Below the pieces are notes generated by a model. The model did no database searches. It was given only the letters and a program-made list of their open reading frames with translations, and was not told the origin of the DNA. Shown one piece after another: positions 10,403 to 63,922 of a DNA stretch of 64,000 nt. The first letter of the stretch is position 1. Every line of letters starts with the position of its first letter. Origin of the DNA: Patescibacteria group bacterium (GTDB lineage: Bacteria; Patescibacteriota; Patescibacteriia; UBA9570); the NCBI GenBank assembly GCA_041665365.1, contig JBAYIY010000006.1, positions 19,602 to 83,601 on the forward strand. Reading direction: 5' to 3'. The position numbers and the translations under genes are program-made.

Positions 10403-12409
10403 TTAGGCTAGTAAAACAACCAATAAAAGCGCCACTATATTTAGGACTTTAATCATTGGGTTAATGGCTGGGCCGGCGGTGTCTTTATAAGGATCACCTA
10501 CGGTATCACCAGTCACAGCGGCGGCATGAGCGGTTGAACCTTTACCGCCGTAATGACCTTTCTCAATATACTTTTTAGCATTGTCCCACGCACCACCACC
10601 AGTGGTCATAGAAATAGCTACAAACATACCGAGCACAATTGAACCCATCAAGACTCCCCCCACCGCGACTGGGCCAAGTAACGCCCAGACGATCACTGGC
10701 GTGAAAACAACTAACACTACTGGCAAGATCATTTGCCGTAAGGCAGCTTTGGTTACTAGATCAACACACGCCGCATAATCTGGTTGCGCGGTTCCTTCCA
10801 TAATGCCGGGAATACTTTTAAATTGACGGCGCACTTCTTTGACCACACTACCGGCCGCTTTACCGACGGCTTCCATACACAGAGCGGTAAAGTAATACGT
10901 AATCATGCCACCAATAAATAAACCAACAATTACTTTCGGATCTTCCAAACTAAATTTTAAAGTCTCACCTGACCGGGCTAAATAATCTTGTGTAAATGCC
11001 GCGAACAATACCAAGGCTGCCAAACCGGCTGAACCAATGGCGTACCCTTTAGTGACGGCTTTAGTGGTGTTACCAACCGCATCAAGCGCATCAGTAATTT
11101 CACGCACCTCATCTGGTAATTTAGCCATTTCCGCAATGCCACCGGCATTATCTGTAATTGGTCCAAAAGCATCTATTGTCACAATAATGCCAGCCAAAGA
11201 TAACATTGCCATGGCCGCTACAGCGATACCGTATAAACCGGCTAAACTGTAGGCAAATAATATAGCGATAACAATCACAAATACTGGGGCTAAGGTTGAT
11301 TTCAAAGAAATAGCTAAACCTTGAATCACGTTAGTACCATGGCCAGATTGTGACGCAAAGGCGATTGAGCGCACTGGTCGATAACTAGTTGAAGTGTAGT
11401 ATTCAGTAATCAAAACTAACAAGGCCGTCACGACTAAACCAACTAAAGCCGAACCATATAATTGACCGATTGAATATAATCCATTGTCGAGCATTAACCA
11501 TTTTGTTACCGGATAAAACACAATCGCCGACAGAACACCAGACACAATCAACCCCTTATACAACGCTCCCATAATTTTATTGGATCCCCCTAATCGAATA
11601 AACCAGGTACCAATAATTGAACAAATAATCGCGGCACCACCTAAGACTAACGGGTAAAGTAAAGCTAAATCTTTCGCTTCACCTTTGAAAATAAGTGAAC
11701 CAAGCAACATCGCTGCCACCGTTGTTACCGCATAAGTTTCAAATAAATCAGCGGCCATACCGGCATCATCACCGACATTATCGCCAACATTATCCGCAAT
11801 CACAGCTGGATTACGCGGATCATCTTCCGGAATACCGGCTTCAACTTTACCAACCAGGTCAGCCCCGACATCGGCGGCTTTGGTAAAGATACCACCACCG
11901 ACACGAGCAAACACAGAAATCAAACTACCACCAAAACCTAAACCAATTAAGGCATCAACATTATTTCCAGTGGCCCAAGCAAAACCGGCCACACCTAATA
12001 AAGCTAAACCAACCACCAACATACCAGTCACCGTGCCACCTTGCACACCAACTTTCATGGCTGCACCTAAACCTTGACGCGCCGCTTCAGCCGTTCTGAC
12101 ATTGGCGCGCACGGCTACATTCATACCAATATAACTAGCAATCGAAGATAGCACGGCTCCCACTAAAAAGCCGGTCGCCATTAAAATTCCCAATAACCAC
12201 CACAGTAATAAAAATAAACCAATGGCAATTACAGCAATAGTGCGGTATTGTCGATTAAGATAAGCCGAAGCACCAGTTTGAATCGCTTTGGCAATGCGCT
12301 GCATGTCTTCATTACCGGCTGGTTTCTTATTTATTTGAACGATTAAAACTACGCCATAGATAATAGCCACTACAGCGGTGCTTAATGAAAATATTATTCC
12401 TGGATGCAT
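10403..12409 (-). CDS. hppA: Membrane-bound proton/sodium-translocating pyrophosphatase
   Basis: 668 aa polytopic protein with [10 protein letters not shown] and DxxGDxxKG motifs typical of H+-PPase. Confidence 0.9.
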
Positions 12410-12412
12410 ATA

Positions 12413-13630
12413 TTATTCAGTTTTAGTTGATTCAATTTTTTCTACTTCTTTCTCTTCTTTTTTTTCAGCGTCTTCAGCTCGAATGATATCAATCGACCAA
12501 CCGGTTAAGCGGGAAGCTAACCGGACATTCTGACCACCCTTACCAATCGCTAAGGAGAATTGATCTTCTGGAACTTCAGCGGTGGCAATTTTTTTACCGT
12601 CTACTTCTTTCAATGAAACACTAGTAATTTTAGCTGGAGATAATGCATTGATAATAAACTTAACAGCATCGTCATCATAATGAATGATATCAATTTTTTC
12701 ACCACCAAGTTCTGTAATCACAGTTTGTACGCGGGTACCACGTTGACCAACACATGAACCAATTGGATCAATACTTGGGTCGGTTGCGGCCACGGCAATT
12801 TTGGTACGCGAACCGGCTTCACGGGCAATCGCTTTAACCACCACACTGCCGGAACCAATTTCCGGCACTTCAGCAGCAAACAAAGCCGATACTAAATTAG
12901 CATTGGAGCGTGAGGCAATAATTTCAGGCCCACGGTGCGTTTTTTCGATTGATAGTAATAATACTTTTATGCGTTGACCGGGTTTATATACTTCACTGCG
13001 CACCTGTTCGGCTGGAGGCATAACCGCCACGGCTTGACCCAGATCAACAAAAACCACTTTACCTTCCACCCGTTGAATCATAACGTTGATCACTTCGCCC
13101 ACACGATCTTGATACAACTTGAAGAGTGTTTCCCGTTCGGCTTCACGCAATTTTTGAATAATCACTTGTTTGGCTGTTTGTGCGGCCATTCGACCAAATT
13201 CAGCCGGCACTTCTACTTCATCACGAATTTCATCACCTAATTCAATATCAGCAATTTCCTCTTTCGCTTGGGTATAAGGAATATCTGTTTTAGGATTAAA
13301 GCGTTTTACCGGTTCACCTTTGTCATCTAACGCTGGAGCACTTTCTACTAAACCAGTCGTAGCGTCTTTATCTTTTTGATATTGCTCATATAAAGCATCT
13401 TCCACTACAGTGGTCACTTCAAATATACGCATCGAGCCATCATTAGGGTTAAATTCCACGCGAATGTCTTTTCCCTTCTGGCCCATCTCTTTACGGTAAG
13501 CTACCGCTAAAGCGGTTTCAATTGTTTCTACCACGGCTTCAAACGGAATGCCTTTTTCTTCGCAAATCTGTTTGATGGCCGCACCGACTTCTTTTGGATC
13601 TGGCATAAATATAGAATTGGTTAGAGACAT
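12413..13630 (-). CDS. nusA: Transcription termination/antitermination factor NusA
   Basis: 405 aa; N-terminal domain, S1 and two KH domains. Start codon lies inside a family-A palindrome. Confidence 0.9.
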   Translation of the reverse strand: MSLTNSIFMPDPKEVGAAIKQICEEKGIPFEAVVETIETALAVAYRKEMGQKGKDIRVEFNPNDGSMRIFEVTTVVEDALYEQYQKDKDATTGLVESAPALDDKGEPVKRFNPKTDIPYTQAKEEIADIELGDEIRDEVEVPAEFGRMAAQTAKQVIIQKLREAERETLFKLYQDRVGEVINVMIQRVEGKVVFVDLGQAVAVMPPAEQVRSEVYKPGQRIKVLLLSIEKTHRGPEIIASRSNANLVSALFAAEVPEIGSGSVVVKAIAREAGSRTKIAVAATDPSIDPIGSCVGQRGTRVQTVITELGGEKIDIIHYDDDAVKFIINALSPAKITSVSLKEVDGKKIATAEVPEDQFSLAIGKGGQNVRLASRLTGWSIDIIRAEDAEKKEEKEVEKIESTKTE

Positions 13631-13644
13631 GCCATGGCATGTCT
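13625..13644. repeat. Family-A palindrome, partial copy (agacatgccatggcatgtct) overlapping the nusA start codon
   Basis: 20 bp perfect palindrome identical to the core of copies at 19469, 20783, 53613 and 54114. Confidence 0.7.
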
Positions 13645-13711
13645 TATAAATAAAAAAAGTAGTATTTTTAATACTACTTCACATTAGTCTGTAAAGAGTA
13701 TGGCGGATGGG

Positions 13712-14077
13712 TTAGTTCTTGTCAATACTAGGAAGAAACATAATGTTTTGCCCGATGATACCGATGGCACCAATCGCTAAACCAGTATAGGTTAGGTGAT
13801 GATCTGTCACGTAGGTTAAGCCTAGTCGCCGCAGCATACAGCGTTTACGTCGACCAATCGCATGAAATGGGTGCCCATAGCGCCAACCCGATCTAGTTTT
13901 GACTTCAAAAAAATATATCACCGTATCTTTTTTAGCGATAATATCAATCTCTCCACTGCGCCTGCTCCAGTTTCGTTCCAAAATGGTATAACCTAGTTTT
14001 AGTAGGTATTCGGTCGCTTGGTTTTCACCGGTTTTCCCAGTTTCATGTCTAGCATACATAAAAAACGCTTCCCACAC
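13712..14077 (-). CDS. yraN: YraN family (UPF0102) endonuclease-like protein
   Basis: GE..A..YL...GY.IL.RNW....GEIDIIA...FFEVKTR pattern. Confidence 0.6.
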   Translation of the reverse strand: MWEAFFMYARHETGKTGENQATEYLLKLGYTILERNWSRRSGEIDIIAKKDTVIYFFEVKTRSGWRYGHPFHAIGRRKRCMLRRLGLTYVTDHHLTYTGLAIGAIGIIGQNIMFLPSIDKN

Positions 14078-14113
14078 ACAATAGGCAGCGCTTGTCCGAG
14101 CATGGTAGCACGC

Positions 14114-14662
14114 TTACTTCACGAACACAAGTCCCCAGTGGTATGGTCCGGCGTTAAATTCAGCGGTTAATTGCATGTGTAGATCTTCGGCTATTTTTTT
14201 CACCTCCTCTGGATGTACGCGCATGTCATTAACTGGCCCCAGTGGCGCTGTGACATCTGGTTTCCAATCAACCACAATCAGTTTTCCACCTGGTCGAACC
14301 ATGCGATGACATTCTTGAACCATTTTCGCGCGTTGTTTAGATTGAAACAGAACTGTTACCATAAAACCGACCATCAAGCTGTTATCCCGAATCGCTTTAG
14401 TAGCACCATAGATTTCTAAATCACTCCACACCGTTTGCACATTATTCAAACCATGCATTTTGGCTTTATTTTGTACGGCCGGCAAAATAGTTTTAACCAC
14501 ATCAACTGCATAAACGATACCATTTTTGCCCACTTGCGCCGCCGCTGGCAAAGCGAGCTTGGCCTCACGCCCAGTACCAAAATCGGCCACATAATCACCC
14601 AATTTTAATTGGGCATGATACAAAATTGTTTTTACATCAATCATCGGACTATTCATTTGCAT
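14114..14662 (-). CDS. Class I SAM-dependent methyltransferase
   Basis: VADFGTGRE (motif I) and RMVRPGGKLIVVDW (motif post-II) pattern. Confidence 0.5.
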   Translation of the reverse strand: MQMNSPMIDVKTILYHAQLKLGDYVADFGTGREAKLALPAAAQVGKNGIVYAVDVVKTILPAVQNKAKMHGLNNVQTVWSDLEIYGATKAIRDNSLMVGFMVTVLFQSKQRAKMVQECHRMVRPGGKLIVVDWKPDVTAPLGPVNDMRVHPEEVKKIAEDLHMQLTAEFNAGPYHWGLVFVK

Positions 14663-14665
14663 GGC

Positions 14666-15238
14666 TTAAGTATAAAGCAGCTTGTGAATCGGAGCAAATG
14701 ATTTTCTATGATAGGGGCTAATTCCATATTTTTTTAATTGTTGTTGGTGTAAAGCTGTACCGTACCCTTTATGTTGGCCAAACATGTATTTACCATCAAC
14801 TGTATCAAGATAGTGCATTAAAGTATCTCGCACCACTTTGGCCACAATCGAGGCGGCACCAATTGTATAATTAGTTGCATCACCATGAATAATTTTCTTG
14901 ATTGGTAAATAATGATGCAAGACAAAACCGTCTACTAAAATAAGCTCTGGCGCTGGATCAAGGTGGGTAATGCAGTAAGATAGAGCAAACATATTGGCTT
15001 GATGCACACCCAACTGATCAATATCCGTTTGCGGCACAGACACAACCACACAGCTAATGGCCGTCGAGACTATTTTTGGAAATAATTTGATTCTTTGTTG
15101 GTGTGATAACTGCTTAGAATCAGCCACACCGGTAATTCGTTTTCCTTGTGGCATAATAATGGCACAAGCCACTAATGGCCCAGCCCAGGCACCTCGCCCG
15201 ACTTCATCAACCCCGGCAATTAGATGATAACTTTCCTT
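14666..15238 (-). CDS. rnhB: Ribonuclease HII
   Basis: GVDEVGRGAWAGPLVACAII motif. The ORF-track 5' extension to 15355 is probably spurious. Confidence 0.85.
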   Translation of the reverse strand, partial: KESYHLIAGVDEVGRGAWAGPLVACAIIMPQGKRITGVADSKQLSHQQRIKLFPKIVSTAISCVVVSVPQTDIDQLGVHQANMFALSYCITHLDPAPELILVDGFVLHHYLPIKKIIHGDATNYTIGAASIVAKVVRDTLMHYLDTVDGKYMFGQHKGYGTALHQQQLKKYGISPYHRKSFAPIHKLLYT

Positions 15239-15298
15239 CATCTTTTTAGTATACACCCATGCCCTGTTACTTGACCTGAAAAAATAGTATGATAACAT

Positions 15299-16135
15299 GT
15301 GACACCTATGGCGAAACGAATTGGTAAGGATCGACTCACTATCACCATGCGACAAGATGTCTTAGCTGCGCTTGATAGCTTCATTAATGGTGATACCATT
15401 CGTAATCGTTCTCAAGCCATCGAACATATCGTTGCCCGTCATCTTGGCACTGGCATTGATACTTGTGTGATTTTAGCCAGTGGCCGTGAAGATCAATCGA
15501 TCAAATGTTTAAAACGCGTGCAAAATCGGCCTGTGATTGCCTATACCATTGAGATGTTGCGTCTGGCTAACATTCACAACATCATTATGGTAATAAATAA
15601 GAAATGTCCGGATATAAAACAATATTTGGGTAACGGTTTACAATACAGAGTTAATATTCAATATATTGAAGAAGACAATCCGACTGGCACGGCACAATCG
15701 TTGCAGAAGGTAAAAGGTCTGATCGATAAAACATTTTTATTGTTATATGGTGATGTACTGGCCGATATAGATATTCAGGAATTGGTTAGATTTCATCATG
15801 ACATGGATCATATTATAATGACCCTAGCCGTGACCGCCGCCACTAATCCATCTTTGTATGGTGTGGCCGAACTACAAGGTAAACGAATTTATCGCTTAAT
15901 CGAAAAACCAACTCAACTAAAAAAGAGTAATCTCGTCGTCGCTGGTGTGGCTGTGTGTGAACCTGAACTGTTTAAAGAAATACCAGAGCATTGTGAAAAT
16001 AAATATTTAGCCCGAGACATCCTCCCAGATTTAGCCCACCGTGGACAAATTGGCGGTTATCCTTTTTCCAACAAATGGTTTGATGTGTCCCATGAGGATG
16101 AATACACCCGCGCGCAAGCGGAGTGGGTGGAATAA
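15299..16135 (+). CDS. Ribbon-helix-helix (CopG-like) domain fused to a sugar-phosphate nucleotidyltransferase domain
   Basis: N-terminus RLTITMRQDVLAALDSFI... resembles an RHH domain. The rest (ILASGREDQ..., NPTGTAQSL, LLLYGDVLADIDIQ) resembles the NTP_transferase fold. Confidence 0.55.
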   Translation: MTPMAKRIGKDRLTITMRQDVLAALDSFINGDTIRNRSQAIEHIVARHLGTGIDTCVILASGREDQSIKCLKRVQNRPVIAYTIEMLRLANIHNIIMVINKKCPDIKQYLGNGLQYRVNIQYIEEDNPTGTAQSLQKVKGLIDKTFLLLYGDVLADIDIQELVRFHHDMDHIIMTLAVTAATNPSLYGVAELQGKRIYRLIEKPTQLKKSNLVVAGVAVCEPELFKEIPEHCENKYLARDILPDLAHRGQIGGYPFSNKWFDVSHEDEYTRAQAEWVE

Positions 16136-16683
16136 AACATTTTTTTTGGATTGTTATAAATATATTGCCGGGTATAATCCAATTGCCGTGGTGTGCGAAT
16201 AATTTCATCGTAATACCGGGGTTGCCAATGGAAATATTGATCCGGTTGTTTTTTTCGAATATAAAACGTGGTGACACCTTTATACCATCGAATTATATGC
16301 GGTAACGATGTGGGATGTAACATTGGATTATTTTGTTTTGTCACCCCACCGGTTTGATGAAACCCTCTGGTAGAGACGCGATTAATCGCGTCTCTACCAG
16401 AGGGTTTCATGTACACAATCCCATGCATGTGATCCGGCATGATCACAAACGCATCCAATTGCATATGTGGAAAATGTTCCGGAATGTTTAACCAATATTG
16501 ATGGGCTGTTTCACCAATATCCGATAAACACATATAACCGTTTTTAATAAAACCAAATGGGTTTTTGTATCGCTGTTTTACGCAAATCGTAATAAAATAC
16601 CACCCCGGTGTGGCATAATTCCAACCGGTTAATCGAATTGATGGTGTAAAATACCGTTGCCTATATAACATAAAACGCCCCAT
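16057..16683 (-). CDS. IS200/IS605-like HuH-Y1 transposase (REP-associated tyrosine transposase, RAYT-like), copy 1, with in-frame palindrome insert
   Basis: YFITICV...FVIMPDHMHGIV (HuH motif) and RQYIYNNP (catalytic Tyr region). A 52 bp perfect palindrome at 16358..16409 is translated in-frame as GRDAINRVSTRGF. The C-terminal tail probably reads into the convergent gene. Confidence 0.65.
   Translation of the reverse strand: MGRFMLYRQRYFTPSIRLTGWNYATPGWYFITICVKQRYKNPFGFIKNGYMCLSDIGETAHQYWLNIPEHFPHMQLDAFVIMPDHMHGIVYMKPSGRDAINRVSTRGFHQTGGVTKQNNPMLHPTSLPHIIRWYKGVTTFYIRKKQPDQYFHWQPRYYDEIIRTPRQLDYTRQYIYNNPKKMFYSTHSACARVYSSSWDTSNHLLEKG
16358..16409. repeat. Family-A palindrome variant (TGAAACCCTCTGGTAGAGACGCGATT|AATCGCGTCTCTACCAGAGGGTTTCA), 52 bp perfect
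   Basis: Read directly; inside RAYT copy 1. Confidence 0.9.
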
Positions 16684-16773
16684 AAGGCGGCGCTTTTCAT
16701 GAACAGGTTATCACAAATAATTGGTTTACACAATGTTTGATATATAACGTAAACAATCAACCTGGTATATGAC

Positions 16774-16831
16774 GTCGACAATCATCCGGTAGAGACGCGA
16801 TTAATCGCGTCTCTACCGGATGATTGTCGAC
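16774..16831. repeat. Family-A palindrome variant, 58 bp perfect (GTCGACAATCATCCGGTAGAGACGCGATTAATCGCGTCTCTACCGGATGATTGTCGAC)
   Basis: Read directly. Followed by direct repeat ccggatgattgt. Lies at the left edge of the GC-rich island. Confidence 0.9.
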
Positions 16832-17105
16832 CGGATGATTGTTCATTTTAACGGGTGATTTTACGATTCCCCCATTCAGGTGTGACAATCCACCTGGACA
16901 ACCAAAACCAATCCCTGTACAAATGGTGGGTCTTGTTCTTTTTATCGTGGTACACCCGCATTTTTATTGATCACAATTACTGATGTGAGGTGAGTTTGGT
17001 GATGAGTGAAAGTGAGGGTGTACCCAAAAAGTTCCCCCTGCACGGTCCAGTGGGATCGTGTTTTCGTGTACAAAGAAAATCAACCTGAACAAGAAGGAAT
17101 GACAA

Positions 17106-18560
17106 GTGGCCCCCAACAACCTCCCCGTGTACGACAACGGGGATATCTTGAAGTTGACCGTCGCGGTCGACCCGAACATCGTTCGGGCTGACATGCCGGC
17201 GGTGAATCGCACGTCTGCGGAACTCAAGAACCTGGGCACGATCGTCCAGGACGCCCTGATCGAAGAGGGCAAGGAACTGGTGCAGGCCGGAATCGGCGAT
17301 GCCAACACGGAGTACACGCTCCGTGATTTGGCTGAGGCCATCAACTCGGCGGCACACCGGGATGTGCTGCCAATCTCTGGCCTCGTCACGCCGGACGCAC
17401 CGGCGTTCCACCTCGAGTACGGCGATGTTCGGGGTATCCACGCCCTGATCACTGTGCTCAAAAACTTCCTCGGCGTCCTCCTCGGCATCGAGGTTCGCGA
17501 CTACGTGACGATCACCCACGGTGGGCGCTCGGCGGTCTTTATGGCCGTCCGTTCATTCACGCAGTTCATGGTCGCTACCCTGAAGTCGATGGGCGTCGAG
17601 GGACCGCCAATGGTGGCGGTTCCAGTGGAAACCTGGGGAACCTACCCCAACATCGTCGCCCAGGCGCTGGGCGACGGGGTATTCCACCCGATCCCCTGCA
17701 GAGACGGCCTGCTCGACGCCGAAGCACTCGACGAAGCGTGCACGCGCAACCCGCGCATTCGCATGCTCATCTTCTGCAATCCGGTGAATCCGAGCGGCCG
17801 GACGTATGGATCCGATCGCATGGCGCGGATCGCCAGGATCGTGGCCAAACACAAGTTGTGCGTCCACGCCGATGACATGTACGCGATGTTTGCGTGGGTT
17901 CACCCCCATCGCAGCATCCTGCGCGCTGCCGCGGCGCTGGCGCACTCGGGTGAAAAGGAGGTTGGAGAGTGGGTCGCATCCCACACCACCCTCCTCACGG
18001 GTGTCATGAAGGCCGGGGGCTCGGGTTCCCGTGTGAACTTCATGGTCATCCCGAACGACAATCTGCGGGCTCGCTTCGTCGCGAACCAGGGCGACCTGTA
18101 CGGTCCGCCGAACATGATGGGGCAGCTGTTGCAGCTCGCCTTCATCAAGCACGGTGGGCCGGAGCGCGTCTGGCTCGAGATGAAGGAGCGGCGTGATGCC
18201 CTCCAGGCCAAGCTGACCGAGGTCGCCGGACGTATCACCGGCTGCCCGATCACCCTGACCTGGAGTGCTATGGAAGGCGGTTTCTACACCGCCATGCACC
18301 TCAACGGCATCGGTGGAATGAAGTACACCGATCGCAGCGGTACCTCCCGGGTCATCATGACGGGCGAGGATATGGCTCGGTTCCTCGTCCAGCGGGCTGG
18401 CATCGTCGCCACGCCCGATGTCGCGGCGTGCGTCGGTGACGTCACCTTCGCGCGCATCGCGTATGGCATGATGCGTCCGGAGACCGTCGAGGTTTTCGGC
18501 AACCAGTTGGCAGACGCCGTGATCGGGCTGTGCGCCGAAAACGGCCACAACCCGAAGTAG
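17106..18560 (+). CDS. PLP-dependent aminotransferase (class I/II fold) on a GC-rich, foreign-looking island
   Basis: 484 aa, GTG start with AGGA 8 nt upstream. NPSG, ADDMY and a VMKAGGSGSRVNF (SxSK..G.R.G-like) lysine motif. Codons are strongly GC3-biased, unlike the rest of the window. Confidence 0.6.
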   Translation: MAPNNLPVYDNGDILKLTVAVDPNIVRADMPAVNRTSAELKNLGTIVQDALIEEGKELVQAGIGDANTEYTLRDLAEAINSAAHRDVLPISGLVTPDAPAFHLEYGDVRGIHALITVLKNFLGVLLGIEVRDYVTITHGGRSAVFMAVRSFTQFMVATLKSMGVEGPPMVAVPVETWGTYPNIVAQALGDGVFHPIPCRDGLLDAEALDEACTRNPRIRMLIFCNPVNPSGRTYGSDRMARIARIVAKHKLCVHADDMYAMFAWVHPHRSILRAAAALAHSGEKEVGEWVASHTTLLTGVMKAGGSGSRVNFMVIPNDNLRARFVANQGDLYGPPNMMGQLLQLAFIKHGGPERVWLEMKERRDALQAKLTEVAGRITGCPITLTWSAMEGGFYTAMHLNGIGGMKYTDRSGTSRVIMTGEDMARFLVQRAGIVATPDVAACVGDVTFARIAYGMMRPETVEVFGNQLADAVIGLCAENGHNPK

Positions 18561-18792
18561 CTTCCCTAGGTTCGCCGTTGAGGTAAAAGGTGGGAAGTAC
18601 GCTCTCCCCCTGGTCACGCGCACTTGACCGCGCGAAAGTGACCACCCCAACGGCGGCCTTTGGGGAAGAACAAGACAACGAGGAGAACAAGTGTGTGTGC
18701 TATATCCAGCGGGACGTAGCACACCGAATGTTCTCCTCCCTTCAGCAATCTGTATCAATTTATTGGTACAGATTGATTAGGGAAAAAATATA

Positions 18793-18837
18793 AAAACCCG
18801 GTAGAGACGTTGTATGCAACGTCTCTACCGGGTTTTT
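18793..18837. repeat. Family-A palindrome variant (AAAAACCCGGTAGAGACGTTG-tatg-CAACGTCTCTACCGGGTTTTT)
   Basis: Read directly: 20 bp arms with a 4 nt loop. Confidence 0.85.
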
Positions 18838-18855
18838 GTGATTATTATGTGTATG

Positions 18856-18903
18856 GTCGGGGGTGAGCGCATGATGTGTGGCGCTCAAACCCCCGAACCT
18901 GTG
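18856..18903. repeat. GC-rich roughly 48 bp hairpin-forming direct repeat, copy 1
   Basis: ggtcgggggtgagcgcatgatgtgtggcgctcaaacccccgaacctgt; second copy at 19174. Confidence 0.6.
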
Positions 18904-19173
18904 TGTGATCAATATCGCTGTGATTTCGGGATCCCGTGATCTAGAACCTCGTATGACCCCCTCTCTGCAGGGGCCACTTCCTGTTGTTCCGGCAATCTCC
19001 GATAAGCGAATCCAAGAAACTCCCCATCCCAATCCCAGGGGTCAGACTCTTGATCTGAGCCGTTTTTTTCACTTTCGTTTTCAGGTTTCTTTTCAGGCAC
19101 ACAGCCTCCTTTGGCTGAGCCATATTAGTTTATAATCATAAAAAAAACAAACACCTTTGTAGGTGTTGTGATG

Positions 19174-19222
19174 TCGGCCAGGGGTGAGCGCATGCTATCT
19201 GCGCTCGAACCCCCGGCCTGTT
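19174..19222. repeat. GC-rich roughly 48 bp hairpin-forming direct repeat, copy 2
   Basis: gtcggccaggggtgagcgcatgctatctgcgctcgaacccccggcctgt. Confidence 0.6.
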
Positions 19223-19468
19223 GCTCAGCAGTAGCACGGTTCGTCGGACGTAGTCCAACGAGGTTTCACGATTTTTTCCCCGTTTTCGGCGGGAGTTTTT
19301 GCCAGCTGAATCGCCGGCTCAGTCTCCAGCCTCAGTGGGGTTTTCTCGATCTTTTTGTCGTTTTCTTTCGCCACATGTCCTCCTATGAGCTGGGGTATCG
19401 TAATAAAAAATATCATCATGTCAAACCAAAAAAGTATGATGAATGCCAAAATAATAACAATGTGTACA

Positions 19469-19514
19469 TTAAAAACAGTAGAGACATGCCATGGCATGTC
19501 TCTACTGTTTTTAA
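19469..19514. repeat. Family-A palindrome, 46 bp perfect (TTAAAAACAGTAGAGACATGCC|ATGGCATGTCTCTACTGTTTTTAA)
   Basis: Read directly. At the right edge of the GC-rich island. Confidence 0.9.
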
Positions 19515-19529
19515 TTGGGGAAGGTATGT

Positions 19530-20774
19530 CTACCCGTTGGCAATCCCCTTGGCTAACATCGCTTGTTCGATGCGTTTGGCGGCATGAATGTAGGCCGCAG
19601 TACGCATTTCACAGTTATATTTTTCTTTAATCGCCCAAATGGCATTGAACGAATCAACCATAATTGGTTCCAATTTGGCTAACACTTCTTTTTCTGACCA
19701 ATAATAATTGTAGGCATTTTGTACCTGTTCAAAGTAAGATACTGTGACACCACCGGCATTAGACAAAATATCGGGTACTAAAATGATGCCTTTCTTGGCT
19801 AAAATTTCATCGGCTTCAGGAGTGGTTGGACCATTGGCTAATTCCACAATGGCTTTACATTTCAATTGGCCAGCATTTTCTGCCAAGATTTGATTCTCCA
19901 AAGCGGCTGGTACCAAAATATCACAGGCCGTAGTTAACACTTGGGCATTGGTGACATTTTTGGCACCGGGGAAATTTTGCACACCGCCAGTTTTGGCTTT
20001 GTGTTTTTCTACAGCCACTGGGTCTAATCCTTTTTCGTTAACAATACCACCGCGGGAATCTGACAAACCAACAATCTTATAACCTTGTTTGGTTAAAATC
20101 TTCGCCATGTAAGAACCGGCATTGCCGAAACCCTGAATCACCACTGTGGAGCCTTTCTTAAATTTCATTTTTTTGGCTAGCTCTAACATGACATACACAC
20201 CCCCTTGCGCGGTAGAATAACCACGACCTGCAGAACCACCAACAGCAATTGGTTTACCAGTAATCACACCGGGCATTTGGTGACCATGTAGAGTATTAAA
20301 TTCATCAAGCATCCAAGCCATAATCTGTGGTGTGGTATACACATCTGGCGCTGGCACATCAATATCTGGACCAAGATCACCACGTAAGCCACGAATAAAG
20401 CCACGGGATAATCTTTCTAATTCACGCACCGATAATTCTTTTGGATTAACCGTCACACCACCCTTACCACCACCTAATGGAATACCGACCGTCGCACACT
20501 TAAAAGTCATCCAGAAAGCTAAGGCTTTTACTTCATTGATATCGGTATCTTGATGAAAGCGAATGCCACCTTTGTTAGGACCACGGGAATTATCATACTG
20601 TACGCGATAGCCTTCATAAACCTTAATATCGCCATTGTCCATCCGAATTGGAATAGAAAAATGAATTTCGCGCTTGGGTTGTTTCAAACGAGCATGCACA
20701 CTGGCATCCAACCCCATTAGTGTAGCGGCTTTATCGAGTTGTTTCTGCGCCGATTGAAACGGATTAACTTTCAT
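19530..20774 (-). CDS. gdhA: Glutamate dehydrogenase (NAD(P)+)
   Basis: 414 aa; KGGIRFH and GGGKGG motifs, C-terminal Rossmann GFGNAG. Confidence 0.9.
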   Translation of the reverse strand: MKVNPFQSAQKQLDKAATLMGLDASVHARLKQPKREIHFSIPIRMDNGDIKVYEGYRVQYDNSRGPNKGGIRFHQDTDINEVKALAFWMTFKCATVGIPLGGGKGGVTVNPKELSVRELERLSRGFIRGLRGDLGPDIDVPAPDVYTTPQIMAWMLDEFNTLHGHQMPGVITGKPIAVGGSAGRGYSTAQGGVYVMLELAKKMKFKKGSTVVIQGFGNAGSYMAKILTKQGYKIVGLSDSRGGIVNEKGLDPVAVEKHKAKTGGVQNFPGAKNVTNAQVLTTACDILVPAALENQILAENAGQLKCKAIVELANGPTTPEADEILAKKGIILVPDILSNAGGVTVSYFEQVQNAYNYYWSEKEVLAKLEPIMVDSFNAIWAIKEKYNCEMRTAAYIHAAKRIEQAMLAKGIANG

Positions 20775-20782
20775 AGATATTT

Positions 20783-20811
20783 GTTACAGACATGCCATGG
20801 CATGTCTTTAC
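20783..20811. repeat. Family-A palindrome, one-mismatch copy (GTTACAGACATGCCATGGCATGTCTTTAC)
   Basis: Between the aminotransferase stop and the gdh start; likely terminator hairpin. Confidence 0.8.
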
Positions 20812-20837
20812 TAATTAAAGACGCGCCTATTATATGC

Positions 20838-22031
20838 CTAGCTATTATATTCTGCAAGGGCTAATTTTATTAGTTCTAATGATCTCTTTAAAGCAGTAGT
20901 GTTTAACATGAAAGCTAACCGCACTTCTTTTTTACCTTTACCCGGAGTAGCGTAAAAACCAGCGGCTGGTGCTAATAGAACAGTTTCATTATGATCCTGG
21001 AATTCATTAATCATCCAAGCGGCAAAGTTATCGGCATCATCAATCGGTAAACCAATAATGATATAAAAAGCTCCTTCTGGTTTGGAAAAAGTGATGTTAG
21101 GAATCTTTTTTAAACCTTGGTACACCACCTCACGTCGCTTTCTAAATTCTTTAGTCATGATGCTGGTGTATTTTTTTGGATTCTGTAATAACGGTATTAA
21201 AGCCAGTTGTTCAATCGAGGCGACTGATAATCTAGCCATGCCCATTTTTAACACAGCGGCAATTACCGCTTTGTTTTTTGAAGCGACTGTCCCGACCCGC
21301 GCCCCGCACACATTAAATCGTTTTGACGCACTATCTAACACCACGGCTTGTTGCTGAATCTCTTTAAACTCCATGATCGAATAACATTTAGATTCAAAGG
21401 CAAACTCACGATAAACTTCATCCGATAAAATAAATAAACCATGCTGCTTAGCTAACTTAACTAAGCGACCTAATTCTTGTTTTGAAAAAATTGTTCCAGT
21501 CGGATTAGATGGATTACAAATCAAAATGGCTTTAGTTTTTTTAGTAATGACTTTTTTTATCTCTGCATCGGTTGGTAAGTGAAAGCCGTTTTTGATATCC
21601 AAAGTAACTGGTTTTAATGTCACATTAGCCAGCGCGGCAAAACTATTATAGTTAGTATAAAATGGTTCAAATACTATTACTTCATCACCCGGATCACAGA
21701 CTGCTTCTAAGGCAAAAATGATACCTTCTGATCCACCGGATGTAATAATAATATCTTCCGGTTCAAATGGGATATGATTCTTTTTATAATACACACTCCA
21801 GGCTTCTAAGGCTGGTTGTAAACCATTCGATGGCGCATAAGACAAAGTCGGCTCAGAGTATTGTTTGATCGCTTTAAACACATCCGGATGAGTGGGTAAA
21901 TCCGGTTGACCAATATTTAAGTGATAAACTTTGATTCCTTTTTTCTTGCGCGCCTCAGCGGCGGCGGCTAGTTTACGTAAAGGTGACGCTTGTAAGTTTG
22001 TACCACGTGTCGAAATATTTGGAATACTCAT
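20838..22031 (-). CDS. Class I/II PLP-dependent aminotransferase (aspartate/aromatic aminotransferase-like)
   Basis: 397 aa; SASKRFNVCGARVG (SxSK..G.R.G) motif. AT-rich codon usage, so native. Confidence 0.8.
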   Translation of the reverse strand: MSIPNISTRGTNLQASPLRKLAAAAEARKKKGIKVYHLNIGQPDLPTHPDVFKAIKQYSEPTLSYAPSNGLQPALEAWSVYYKKNHIPFEPEDIIITSGGSEGIIFALEAVCDPGDEVIVFEPFYTNYNSFAALANVTLKPVTLDIKNGFHLPTDAEIKKVITKKTKAILICNPSNPTGTIFSKQELGRLVKLAKQHGLFILSDEVYREFAFESKCYSIMEFKEIQQQAVVLDSASKRFNVCGARVGTVASKNKAVIAAVLKMGMARLSVASIEQLALIPLLQNPKKYTSIMTKEFRKRREVVYQGLKKIPNITFSKPEGAFYIIIGLPIDDADNFAAWMINEFQDHNETVLLAPAAGFYATPGKGKKEVRLAFMLNTTALKRSLELIKLALAEYNS

Positions 22032-24750: not shown

Positions 24751-24806
24751 CTTTGTGGATTTATTCACCGAAGCTCACTGACGCCGAAGGCTAAGGTGAA
24801 CGAAGG

Positions 24807-24879
24807 TGGACCTGAGCGGACTCGAACCGCTTACCTCAGCAATGCGAATGCTGCGCTCTACCAGATGAGCTACAGGCCC
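24807..24879 (-). tRNA. tRNA-Ala (CGC)
   Basis: Reverse complement gggcctgtagctcatctggtagagcgcagcattCGCattgctg...ggttcgagtcc...caggtcca; G3:U70 pair present. Confidence 0.75.
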
Positions 24880-24885
24880 AAATAA

Positions 24886-24959
24886 GTGGACCGACGGGGA
24901 TTCGAACCCCGGACCTTTCCCATGCCATGGGAACGCTCTACCAACTGAGCTATCGGCCC
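24886..24959 (-). tRNA. tRNA-Ala (GGC)
   Basis: Reverse complement gggccgatagctcagttggtagagcgttcccatGGCatgggaa...ggttcgaatcc...tcggtcca; G3:U70. Confidence 0.7.
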
Positions 24960-24960
24960 T

Positions 24961-25030
24961 TAAGCGAAACAATCTACCAACTGCCTGTCCGCCAAAGCTC
25001 GAGTCTTCGAGAGCGTCGGCGGAAGCTATC
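24961..25030 (-). pseudogene. tRNA-derived fragments (scrambled partial tRNA-Ala-like segments)
   Basis: Contains ggggccgatagct and cagttggtag pieces matching the adjacent tRNA-Ala. No complete cloverleaf. Confidence 0.35.
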
Positions 25031-25109
25031 GGCCCCTACAAAAAGGATCATTTATCTAAACCTTGAGGACTATATACCAACTTACTAAAAAGATCAAATG
25101 TACTGCCTG

Positions 25110-52650: not shown

Positions 52651-54077
52651 AATGGTATGTGTGGCTGAGCATTGTGCTGCTGGCACTTGGTTTGTGCAGC
52701 TTACAAGGCACAGTTGTTTTTCCTGATCCAGATGCGTTTTACCATGTTGGCGTGGCCCAACATTTATGGGAGTTTGGCTTTGCTAAAACATTTTCCGGAT
52801 TGCAACCCACTACTTTAGGGCAACACTTTGTCGATCAGCATTTCTTATTACATTTTACCCTAGCACCATTTGTGTGGATGATGAGCCCTGGAGTTGGCAC
52901 CAAAGTATATATGGTAGTTGTAGTATTAGTCTGTTTAAGTGTCATGTCTTACATGCTATATTGGATCAAAGCACAGACTTGGTGGGTTGGAGTTATGCTT
53001 TTGGTAGCAACTAACGCCTGGTTATTTCGTATAAATTTAGTAAAGGCCACGCCGTTGGCTTTGATTTTGTTATTTTTATCACTGCTAGCTTTACAAACAA
53101 AAAAATATAAATGGTTACTGCTAATAGGTGGTCTCTATGTCTGGACACACGGTGGGTTTATTTTATTGCCCATTCTAGTTGGAGTTTGGAGCCTGTTAGC
53201 CAAACAATGGAAACCGGTCGCGTATGTATTATGTGGAATCAGTGTGGCTATTTTAGTCCACCCAGCCTTTCCAAATAATCTATTATTTTATTGGGAACAA
53301 CTTGTTCAAATCGGCGCAGTTAATTATCAAACTGTGATTGGGGTAGGAGGAGAGTGGTATCCCTATGAACCCGGTTCATTAGTATTTGGTCATACTATAA
53401 TTTTTTCCATTCTAATAATTAGTCTTGTCCTGCATGTCTTACAAAGACGTCCGTTTACTGTGGCGCAAATATGTTTTTCTATTTACACCGTAATATTTTT
53501 CATTCTCACATTAAAATCCAAAAGATACGTGGAATATTTTTCACCCATGTTAGCCTGCACAGCGGCATTGTATGTGCCAACGGTGATAAAATCAAAAGTA
53601 GAGACACACAATAAAGTAGAGACACGCCATGGCATGTCTCTACTTTTGATTCCCACGGCAATTATGATTGTTGTCCTGGTACCGGTTGTAATTCAAGAAA
53701 TTATTACCGCAAAAACTGATTTGCAATCTGGCCAAGCGTTAACCTATTTACATGGAGCCGGAGAATTTTTAGATACTTTACCACCAGGGCAAGTCGTTGC
53801 CCCCAGTGATTGGGATGATTTTCCAGCTCTGTGGCGAGCCGCACCACACCAACAATTTTTAATTGGATTAGATCCGACTTTTCTATATCTGGCTAATCCT
53901 ACTCGTTATGAAGCTTGGCGCGCCCTCACCTTAGGTGAAGACAATGATGTTGATACAGTAGGGGCAGATTATTATGTGGTAGCCAAAGACCATAAATCTA
54001 TGCATAAACATTTGGTAAAAATTGATGCCGTGACGGTTTATGAAGACGATGAGGCTTGGGTGTTAACAACCCCATAA
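52647..54077 (+). CDS. Polytopic membrane protein, GT-C-fold glycosyltransferase-like (paralog 2), with in-frame palindrome-encoded insert
   Basis: Same conserved blocks as paralog 1. Residues KSKVETHNKVETRHGMSLLLIP are encoded by a family-A palindrome at 53594..53648. Confidence 0.4.
   Translation: MKWYVWLSIVLLALGLCSLQGTVVFPDPDAFYHVGVAQHLWEFGFAKTFSGLQPTTLGQHFVDQHFLLHFTLAPFVWMMSPGVGTKVYMVVVVLVCLSVMSYMLYWIKAQTWWVGVMLLVATNAWLFRINLVKATPLALILLFLSLLALQTKKYKWLLLIGGLYVWTHGGFILLPILVGVWSLLAKQWKPVAYVLCGISVAILVHPAFPNNLLFYWEQLVQIGAVNYQTVIGVGGEWYPYEPGSLVFGHTIIFSILIISLVLHVLQRRPFTVAQICFSIYTVIFFILTLKSKRYVEYFSPMLACTAALYVPTVIKSKVETHNKVETRHGMSLLLIPTAIMIVVLVPVVIQEIITAKTDLQSGQALTYLHGAGEFLDTLPPGQVVAPSDWDDFPALWRAAPHQQFLIGLDPTFLYLANPTRYEAWRALTLGEDNDVDTVGADYYVVAKDHKSMHKHLVKIDAVTVYEDDEAWVLTTP
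53594..53648. repeat. Family-A palindrome (one mismatch) with partial tandem duplication, inserted in-frame in a CDS
   Basis: aaagtagagacaca + aaagtagagacacgccatggcatgtctctacttt. Confidence 0.85.
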
Positions 54078-54111: not shown

Positions 54112-54113
54112 TG

Positions 54114-54141
54114 TAGAGACATGCCATGGCATGTCTCTACT
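54114..54141. repeat. Family-A palindrome, 28 bp perfect core (GTAGAGACATGCCATGGCATGTCTCTAC)
   Basis: Read directly; between convergent genes. Confidence 0.9.
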
Positions 54142-63451: not shown

Positions 63452-63922
63452 TCACCCAGGCGCACCCCATGCTTGCAACCCCTTCAACCGCCGATGCTGA
63501 ATCTTCTCCGTCTTCGTGTTGAAGACAAGAAGCTCTCCATTTTGGAATAAGAAGAACCACTTGCCCTTGAAGAAGTATGCCTCAGCAAGGGTGGTGTTGT
63601 GGAGGACATGTGGTTCACTCCACATGAACCTACCCGGAACCATTTCCACGTACTGGATATAGTTCGTGGGATAGGTGTCGAGCTCGTCCCCATTGAGGGG
63701 GATCCAGTGCCCCACATAGACACAGATCTTCTCGTGATCCATGTAGGGCTCGACGATCATGACCCTAGTTGTATGAACCTTATACAGGAACTTGAGGGTG
63801 TTCAACTCGAACAACCACTCATGATCACAGAGACCCCCCTGCTTGGGCGGGTCGGCGGCCAACACGAAGTTAGGGCAGAAGAACACGAACAGGAACACCA
63901 TGACCGTCATGACGTGACGCAT
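63452..63922 (-). CDS. Hypothetical secreted protein on a compositionally distinct, GC-richer segment
   Basis: 156 aa with signal peptide (MVFLFVFFCPNFVLAA). Codon usage (ttc, aag, gag, ctc) is unlike the rest of the window. Confidence 0.35.
   Translation of the reverse strand: MRHVMTVMVFLFVFFCPNFVLAADPPKQGGLCDHEWLFELNTLKFLYKVHTTRVMIVEPYMDHEKICVYVGHWIPLNGDELDTYPTNYIQYVEMVPGRFMWSEPHVLHNTTLAEAYFFKGKWFFLFQNGELLVFNTKTEKIQHRRLKGLQAWGAPG

Follow-up and report, generated by a model that had tools for sequence, protein, structure and literature searches.

A 64,000-nucleotide stretch of contig JBAYIY010000006.1, from a Patescibacteria group bacterium, was analysed around a single GC-rich gene that encodes an aminotransferase. 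The whole stretch is called the window here, and coordinates refer to it unless a related locus, designated by an L number, is named. A first-pass annotation had read this gene as part of an island recently acquired from a high-GC donor. The evidence tips modestly towards a different reading, namely a hypervariable accessory locus that is old and that owes its foreign-looking composition to the allele pool of the clade and not to one recent transfer. The gene would then be a long-standing accessory locus of one clade of Patescibacteria (Kerfeldbacteria-like), placed in a slot between a nucleotidyltransferase gene and a glutamate dehydrogenase (GDH) gene, and its divergent alleles would be exchanged as whole coding sequences through recombination in the conserved flanks.

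A GC-rich gene in an AT-rich genome

GC content in 300-nucleotide windows rises from 0.38–0.44 to 0.62–0.65 between approximately 17100 and 18700, and past this core falls through 0.48–0.50 to 0.40 by approximately 19400. The stretch 17050–18720 has a GC content of about 0.63, compared with 0.41 elsewhere in the window, and the 1-kb bins within 17001–19000 (0.61 and 0.59) are the sole bins above 0.47 in 64 kb. Windows of 200 nucleotides with a GC content of 0.55 or more were found only at 17051–18750, 18851 and 19151–19400, or over tRNA genes at 24751–25050. GC content is therefore not uniform, and these measurements, together with the z-scores given below, bear out the abrupt shift in composition and codon usage that had been placed near 16990–19380; the observation of a GC-rich gene in an AT-rich genome is confirmed as real.

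The single long open reading frame (ORF) described previously, with a GTG start and a strong bias at third codon positions, is present at 17106–18560 on the plus strand and encodes 484 amino acids. It was characterized from the ORF itself, Pfam, alignment and a structure model as the gene for a divergent fold-type-I (class I/II) pyridoxal phosphate (PLP) aminotransferase. GC contents at its first, second and third codon positions (GC1, GC2 and GC3) are 0.64, 0.44 and 0.82, with GC3 values of 0.32–0.40 in neighbouring genes. Compared with 50 other ORFs of the window (GC3 0.358 ± 0.068), the gene has a z-score of +6.8 for GC3 and +8.4 for GC. Its relative synonymous codon usage correlates with that of GC-rich bacteria (r = 0.82–0.87) and not with that of native genes (r = 0.03), in agreement with the earlier statement that the composition resembles that of a high-GC donor.

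The extent of the island required refinement. The region of about 2.4 kb previously outlined is GC-elevated as claimed, but it is a composite of a strongly GC-rich core of 1.7 kb, made up of the aminotransferase gene with about 60 nucleotides upstream and about 160 nucleotides downstream, and a 0.65-kb tail with a GC content of 0.48–0.50. This intermediate tail contains a native palindrome (family A, see below) and two small minus-strand ORFs, each followed by a GC-rich hairpin. The stacked antisense ORFs that had been noticed across the GC-rich gene are also present, and their lengths were matched by synonymous-codon shuffles in all 13 alleles compared. Because the shuffles reproduce these lengths, the antisense ORFs are a by-product of codon usage, and a candidate antisense gene was rejected. 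A second composition outlier lies near the end of the window (63452–63922, minus strand). This ORF of 156 amino acids (GC3 0.745, GC 0.52) has a signal-peptide-like N-terminal segment and no match to PADLOC models, and may be a second foreign-type gene of the genome.

The aminotransferase slot in related genomes

The aminotransferase gene is flanked by two conserved anchors of native composition, an NTP_transferase gene on the left (15299–16135, plus strand; Pfam PF00483, 96 bits) and the GDH gene on the right (19530–20774, minus strand; Pfam ELFV_dehydrog). The NTP_transferase gene is found upstream of the aminotransferase in L002, L003, L004, L006 and L009, and the contig of L011 opens with the last codons of this gene at the same place, while L004 and L005 run from the aminotransferase into the same GDH gene. 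The aminotransferase is thus not absent from this locus in relatives but occupies the slot, defined by NTP_transferase upstream and/or GDH downstream, in seven loci (L002, L003, L004, L005, L006, L009 and L011); homologous flanks also surround it in L007, L008 and L013. L002 and L009 share, in addition, the H+-PPase, NusA, UPF0102, methyltransferase and RNase HII genes found at 10403–15355 of the window, and L009 is 71% identical to the window in DNA across 4.2 kb. All alleles are GC-rich (GC3 0.66–0.95) even though they are only 35–85% identical in amino acids, compared with GC3 values of 0.37–0.51 in the flanking genes. The proposal of a recent horizontal acquisition is contradicted by this distribution.

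The occupancy data also bear on an assembly chimera, named earlier as the main alternative, in which GC-rich DNA of another organism would have been joined into a Patescibacterial contig. An abrupt change of composition within a metagenome-assembled contig is what such an artefact would produce. The left junction, however, is spanned in six independent assemblies (L002, L003, L004, L006, L009 and L011) and the right junction in two (L004 and L005), with the contigs of the relatives coming from different sequencing runs or samples, and a native palindrome of the REP (repetitive extragenic palindromic) type lies inside the island. Since the same GC-rich gene stands between the same neighbours in independently assembled relatives, we regard a chimera as excluded, its probability being close to nil.

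Comparison of closely related genomes revealed that the coding sequence varies independently of its surroundings. L002 and L003 have NTP_transferase genes that are 99% identical in amino acids and 90% identical in DNA, but their aminotransferases share merely 47% of amino acids; non-coding sequence flanking the aminotransferase on either side is 82–84% identical, and identity on the 3' side restarts exactly at the stop codon. Between L008 and L013, the 5' leader is about 90% identical as far as the ribosome-binding site (RBS), CTGGAGACGCAACC, whereupon the coding sequences fall abruptly to about 50% identity in DNA and 37% in protein, and similarity returns with the final codons (ENGKSK) and continues in the 3' flank. 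Over 15 genome pairs, identities of the NTP_transferase and the aminotransferase were uncorrelated (Spearman 0.15, p = 0.59). For example, the aminotransferases of L004 and L009 are 79% identical in amino acids and those of L004 and L006 59%, at equal NTP_transferase distances. Because flanks match at 82–93% while coding sequences share 37–47% in near-identical genome pairs, whole coding sequences are, on the evidence of these alignments, exchanged, or differentially retained, between flanks specific to the Patescibacterial locus. The exchange would proceed by homologous recombination, or by unequal recombination between repeated flanks.

Hypervariable loci of atypical composition are known elsewhere, for instance the O-antigen (rfb) clusters between galF and gnd and the pyoverdine locus of Pseudomonas aeruginosa. 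The window locus resembles these in its fixed position between housekeeping genes, in flanks that are conserved while the alleles are not, in deeply divergent alleles among close relatives, in a gene tree that conflicts with those of the flanking genes, and in a composition and a pattern of codon usage that differ from those of the genome at large. It differs from them in that it consists of one enzyme gene and not a multi-gene cluster, in its extreme shift to high GC (GC3 up to 0.95) within an AT-rich reduced genome, and in that no surface or secreted product has been identified for it.

The interval between the NTP_transferase and aminotransferase genes has a different content in each genome. 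It is nearly empty in L004, but holds a RAYT gene in the window, a Fic gene and three toxin-antitoxin cassettes in L002, AbiEi/AbiEii genes in L003, PIN cassettes in L007 and a second GC-rich aminotransferase gene in L009. The slot acts as a hot spot, in which relatives collect toxin-antitoxin, Abi and Fic cassettes or the second aminotransferase, and the window genome has collected its RAYT gene, REP palindromes and two small ORFs with GC-rich hairpins. The second aminotransferase gene of L009 (L009 6096–7451, plus strand; GC3 0.71) belongs to a different and very large family, with about 60% identity to thousands of relatives, mainly from Proteobacteria, Myxococcota and Binatia. Its nearest relatives, at 82% identity, are in a metagenome-assembled genome (MAG) of Candidatus Kerfeldbacteria, and because of this match the lineage is probably Kerfeldbacteria-like. 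In L009 the gene is preceded by a 50-nucleotide direct repeat of the NTP_transferase stop-codon sequence (L009 5964–6013 and 7641–7690). In both L009 and L006, the inserted segments lie between direct repeats of the NTP_transferase 3' end; no such repeats were found in the window. The record containing L009 (CAYLOJ010000014.1) bears the title 'uncultured Gammaproteobacteria bacterium', yet in gene order and DNA it agrees with the Patescibacterial window. The contig looks misclassified or mis-binned, perhaps owing to its GC-rich proteobacterial-type genes, and the practical upshot is that a related contig is filed under Gammaproteobacteria despite Patescibacterial gene order and DNA.

The RAYT gene and the palindromes around it had suggested a single recent acquisition, with a GC-rich donor as the source and the RAYT/REP hairpin machinery as the means of transfer. 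These elements do lie directly beside and inside an island of strongly atypical composition. The RAYT-like Y1 (IS200-like) transposase gene (16057–16683, minus strand), found in this genome only, matches Pfam Y1_Tnp at 30.4 bits (cut-off 23) and the NCBIfam model REP_Tyr_transpos at 46 bits, below its cut-off of 80. It is bracketed by two perfect family-A REP palindromes with a GTAG core, one to its left at 16357–16410 (27+27 nucleotides) and one to its right at 16774–16831 (29+29). Further family-A palindromes follow the conserved 3' flank of the aminotransferase (18783–18846, 87% complementary) and lie just downstream of the GDH gene (19468–19515, perfect, 24+24). The copies previously listed at 16774, 18793 and 19469 were therefore found where placed, with an extra copy at 16357–16410. 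The family-A core, GTAGAGAC-N12-GTCTCTAC, occurs six times in the 64-kb window against an expectation of zero, and the palindromes are scattered at intergenic sites. As in REP/RAYT systems generally, they are GTAG-cored, intergenic and bracket a Y1 transposase gene.

Neither the RAYT gene nor a family-A palindrome is present in any related locus examined, although the locus and its homologous flanks are, and for this reason the RAYT/REP elements look like later, genome-specific additions. The REP copy inside the island tail implies that the gene was resident before the REP elements spread. Moreover, the synonymous sites of the window gene are already saturated relative to the closest allele (75% amino acid identity). 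The claim of hairpin- or RAYT-mediated acquisition thus fails, and we consider a single recent acquisition of this kind very improbable; the REP/RAYT system of the window is a separate genome-specific feature, outside the GC-rich gene and needless for explaining it.

Some smaller features of these elements may be recorded here. Over 79 nucleotides (16057–16135), the RAYT ORF and the 3' end of the convergent NTP_transferase gene coincide, consistent with the RAYT unit having inserted at the very end of that gene. Additional family-A copies lie at a distance from the island (53616–53643 and 54113–54140), and a degenerate copy is found at 20785–20812, just downstream of the upstream neighbour of the GDH gene; the family is dispersed through the genome. 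The REP copy at 18793–18836, within 18783–18846, has the appearance of a bidirectional terminator of the aminotransferase gene.

Horizontally acquired genomic islands have been reported in Patescibacteria (PMC12455944). Those islands and the window locus have in common an atypical accessory gene in a genome of the candidate phyla radiation and a region rich in toxin-antitoxin and defence genes. The window locus, on the other hand, is neither recent nor strain-specific and has no mobility gene of its own; its position is conserved across the clade and its synonymous sites are unameliorated.

Age and origin of the GC-rich composition

The age of the GC-rich composition was assessed from synonymous sites at conserved residues. 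In the closest allele pairs (85% and 79% amino acid identity), identity at four-fold degenerate sites was just 0.55–0.56, and approximately 72% of the differences at these sites were between C and G. The same share of C–G differences is expected at full saturation if base composition is stationary at about 56% C, 35% G, 7% T and 2% A; this excess is a prediction of base composition alone and does not separate import from maintenance in place. NTP_transferase genes, analysed as controls, were saturated at an AT-rich composition. Because the synonymous sites of the aminotransferase are saturated at a GC-rich composition, all of the divergence among its alleles arose under a GC-rich regime. The synonymous choice of C versus G resembles the native pattern and also that in actinobacterial codon tables, and is not diagnostic.

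Amino acid composition was informative in a different way. The Patescibacterial alleles are uniform and intermediate whatever their GC3, with FYMINK fractions of 0.23–0.255 and GARP fractions of 0.28–0.33, compared with 0.16 and 0.36 in the two homologs from GC-rich genomes and 0.28 and 0.25 in native proteins. Alleles with GC3 values of 0.88–0.95 already show this intermediate composition. In classical amelioration, third codon positions should erode first. In the present alleles third positions match a 72%-GC genome in GC-richness, and it is the non-synonymous positions that are partly native, so that the pattern is not one of simple amelioration. In a neighbour-joining tree, the two family members from a GC-rich context (L001 and L010) were nested within the Patescibacterial diversity, as sisters of L011. 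On the strength of saturation at a GC-rich composition, uniform amino acid composition and the nested position of the GC-rich-context members, we favour a resident, long-lived allele pool in which GC-richness would be maintained. The pool behaves as stationary, and its GC-richness would then be a stable property of the whole, for which repeated import, biased gene conversion and selection are candidate causes.

Searches for further family members yielded few sequences. About 16 sequences in 15 billion proteins make up the family. When 5.8 billion clusters were searched with a word index, the window protein and 11 relatives were recovered, all 11 from Logan assemblies, and an exhaustive HMMER search of 1.84 billion representatives recovered seven clusters at E < 1e-30, with a gap in score between the family (> 330 bits) and all other aminotransferases (< 160 bits). 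Scans of JGI metagenomes and IMG/VR viral contigs found no relatives of the family. A profile search with more distant members added contributed just one homolog, from Micrarchaeota, at 26% identity; this homolog is uninformative about a donor because its GC content equals that of its own flanks. It lies in a MAG of this DPANN archaeon (L012; JBFMAP010000149.1, 1–483 and 932–2386), is the most distant member of the family and adjoins another class I/II aminotransferase gene. The expectation that a donor lineage could be named was not borne out, as 15 billion proteins held no large GC-rich reservoir of the family.

How a resident pool would have stayed GC-rich can be pictured in more than one way. 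The gene may be native to the pool of the clade, with its synonymous sites actively held at a GC3 of about 0.9 (other genes, about 0.36) by GC-biased gene conversion at a recombination hot spot or by selection on mRNA or DNA, and the homologs in GC-rich bacteria may be exports from Patescibacteria; we put this forward as possible, short of probable. Export would explain both the nested position of the two homologs and the GC-rich amino acid composition that they alone possess, and GC-biased gene conversion would in addition account for the GC elevation of the flanks and the moderate rise in GC1 and GC2.

It is also possible, and a serious rival though less likely than a resident pool, that the clade repeatedly captures versions of the gene from GC-rich bacteria, possibly its hosts, into a landing pad adjacent to GDH, each allele being a separate and fairly recent arrival at its own stage of amelioration. 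Codon usage like that of GC-rich bacteria is consistent with such repeated import, as are the span of GC3 (0.66–0.95) with an excess of changes towards A or T on the branch of the window allele, the two family members found in DNA of 66–72% GC, one of them beside non-ribosomal peptide synthetase/polyketide synthase (NRPS/PKS) genes, the second GC-rich aminotransferase of L009, whose relatives at about 60% identity in Proteobacteria, Myxococcota and Binatia number in the thousands, and the NTP_transferase 3'-end repeats that bracket insertions in L009 and L006. The model, however, requires at least ten independent imports, all in the same orientation, with boundaries exactly at the RBS and the stop codon and within flanks exclusive to Patescibacteria. 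None of the GC-rich-context loci has the flank motifs, the 15 billion proteins contain almost no homologs from a GC-rich context, and the JGI metagenomes and viral contigs contain none. Furthermore, the GC-rich-context members are nested in the Patescibacterial diversity and not basal to it, and amino acid composition is uniformly intermediate even at a GC3 of 0.94.

A number of points weigh against the old, resident locus that we favour. The allele comparisons comprise about 13 sequences, most of them on short contigs and most from one sequencing project, and bootstrap support in the tree is moderate (43–99%). On the branch of the window allele, 14 changes from G or C to A or T were counted against two in the opposite direction, which fits ongoing amelioration after import, parsimony polarisation of synonymous changes being swamped by saturation. 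GC3 is not uniform among alleles (0.66–0.95), and codon usage is like that of ordinary GC-rich bacteria. The slot is able to take up GC-rich foreign genes, since the second aminotransferase of L009 is from a large family represented mainly in Proteobacteria, Myxococcota and Binatia. If tandem paralogs had been lost differentially, the outcome could resemble an exchange of alleles. No mechanism is established that holds one bacterial gene at a GC3 of about 0.9, and the substrate of the enzyme and its functional link to GDH, discussed below, are read solely from gene position.

Atypical GC content is routinely taken as a sign of recent horizontal transfer, and also as a flag for contamination of a MAG. 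The usual amelioration clock does not hold for a gene whose GC3 of up to 0.95 has been kept in one slot across an AT-rich reduced clade and whose alleles have diverged to 35% identity. Should the composition be maintained in place, the locus would serve as an unusually clean example, among bacteria, of GC-biased conversion confined to one locus or of selection acting on synonymous sites; should it result from repeated import, the codon usage of the alleles could point to the hosts or donors of Patescibacteria in groundwater. Also of some note are how rare the enzyme family is and how an extreme GC3 has persisted in reduced AT-rich genomes.

The enzyme and the elements around its gene

The product of the gene matches Pfam PF00155 (Aminotran_1_2) over residues 104–463 with 64.1 bits, against a cut-off of 19.7. 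Residue K302, in GVMKAGGSGSR, is the Schiff-base lysine, and an NPxNPSG motif (NPVNPSG, with N225 and N228) is found at 225–231. These residues, together with D256 and Y259 (DDMY) and the carboxylate-binding R450, are invariant across 12–13 family sequences, and the invariant PLP-enzyme residues align with their counterparts in the aspartate aminotransferase 6f35. An AlphaFold2 model (mean predicted local distance difference test score 78) matched class Ib aspartate/prephenate aminotransferases with a Foldseek probability of 1.0, although template modelling scores were just 0.4–0.5 because the domain arrangement and the N-terminus are poorly modelled. No NCBIfam equivalog came close to its cut-off (47 bits against 617). 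The earlier assignment to a PLP aminotransferase of the class I/II fold is borne out by the Pfam match, the conserved residues and the Foldseek result, and the protein has the features expected of an intact, functional-looking, divergent fold-type-I PLP enzyme.

The class Ib enzymes from Rhizobium meliloti (6f35 and 6f77) and Thermus thermophilus (1bjw) therefore share their fold with the window protein, and their catalytic lysine, NPxNPSG motif, D..Y PLP residues and C-terminal arginine align with it. Identity to these enzymes is merely about 20%. Unlike class Ib enzymes, the window family has a conserved N-terminal region of about 100 residues (PPLYDNGDILKL...PAVNR) ahead of the Pfam match, and some alleles carry an extra insertion of 60–130 residues.

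The protein may act on an amino or oxo acid, as a transaminase or as a PLP enzyme of a related kind. Its gene is consistently placed beside the GDH gene and a second, native aminotransferase gene (20838–22031 of the window; NCBIfam PRK07568, 538 bits), and from their position the GDH and the native aminotransferase would supply and recycle glutamate and 2-oxoglutarate for the enzyme. The GC-rich-context member L001 sits in an NRPS/PKS gene neighbourhood, which suggests an unusual (non-standard) amino acid substrate. The occurrence of very different alleles within one sampling project suggests differing specificities or some balancing selection. The subfamily is almost unsampled, and its additional occurrence next to NRPS/PKS genes makes the identity of its substrate of interest.

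The tail of the island, to the right of the gene, contains two small minus-strand ORFs. The first, orf63 (18909–19100), encodes 63 amino acids without a family match and has an AAGGAGG RBS and a GTG start; an imperfect GC-rich hairpin with a 2-nucleotide bulge (18855–18900) begins 9 nucleotides past its stop codon. The second, orf49 (19225–19374), encodes 49 amino acids ending in CYC, with an AGGAGG RBS, a GTG start and a promoter-like site at 19424–19397, and a second imperfect copy of the hairpin (19176–19220) begins 5 nucleotides past its stop codon. A terminator-like hairpin followed by a T-run lies at 19150–19167 on the minus strand. The two GC-rich hairpins, with DNA folding z-scores of −4 to −7, correspond to the direct-repeat pair previously placed at 18856 and 19174, and no further copies of this family occur elsewhere in the window. 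The small ORFs are missing from the shorter aminotransferase–GDH spacers of L004 (417 bp) and L005 (363 bp), and no homologs of them were found among the fetched loci. PADLOC defence models did not match the aminotransferase, two divergent alleles or the small ORFs, and an Rfam scan of 16300–19800 at a permissive threshold returned no RNA family, just sub-threshold matches of hairpins to microRNA models.

The arrangement of small genes and hairpins raises the question of an integron-like system, in which the aminotransferase and the small genes would be cassettes, the GC-rich hairpins recombination sites, and the recombinase encoded elsewhere. Both small ORFs of the window lie on the same strand and each is followed by a bulged GC-rich hairpin. 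In L002 and L007, imperfect GC-rich hairpin repeats of 58–66 nucleotides separate the toxin-antitoxin cassettes at a spacing of about 745 nucleotides (L002 8183–8250, 8928–8999 and 9675–9746; L007 1061–1118 and 1790–1847), in what looks like a cassette array, with no recombinase in sight. The near-identical L003 has one copy (L003 2712–2771) where L002 has three, and content turns over rapidly between such near-identical genomes. Against this model, no integrase was found by Pfam on 20 neighbouring ORFs within 15 kb either side of the window locus, where only housekeeping genes occur, or within 10 kb upstream in L002; the canonical R''/R' consensus (RYYYAAC/GTTRRRY) was not seen in the hairpins on inspection by eye in ORF orientation, no attC model having been run; and hairpin families vary between genomes and lie on different sides of the aminotransferase, which is itself bounded by other conserved motifs and not by hairpins. 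With no integrase found nearby and no canonical attC core sites seen by eye, we treat an integron-like mechanism as a minority possibility and an unlikely one. The nearest tRNA genes are more than 5 kb from the aminotransferase.

The motifs that bound the aminotransferase were defined by alignment. Its 5' flank (16880–17105, plus strand) contains the motif GACAATCCA.C, common to L004, L005 and L006, and an imperfect hairpin at 16949–17024. A conserved, GC-elevated 3' flank (18561–18790, plus strand), defined from alignments and a motif listing, contains a helix, GAGGAGAACA...TGTTCTCCTC, at 18680–18741 with a folding z-score of −3.9, the outer part of which is invariant among the aligned loci. 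The structured motif of this flank, GAGGAGAAC...GTTCT...CTCCTC followed by TTGGTACAGA, is found in the window, L004, L005, L006 and L009 and in degenerate or partial form in L008, and is absent from both loci in GC-rich genomes. A scan of metagenome DNA with an 18-nucleotide motif from the 3' flank, GAGGAGAACYTGAGATYR, gave more than 120 matches (loci L014–L133), none of which had the extended motif or the aminotransferase. Many of these matches lie in or beside unrelated NTP_transferase genes, where the motif would read E-E-N-L-R; the recurrence is probably a coding coincidence. Upstream of the aminotransferase, the initiation motif GGAGACGCAACC is doubled in several alleles, in frame and 30–48 nucleotides apart (L004 1485–1537, L006 approximately 2060–2108, L008 approximately 135–205 and L013 approximately 50–115), and the doubled motif could be a recombination scar, a leader peptide or a pair of alternative starts.

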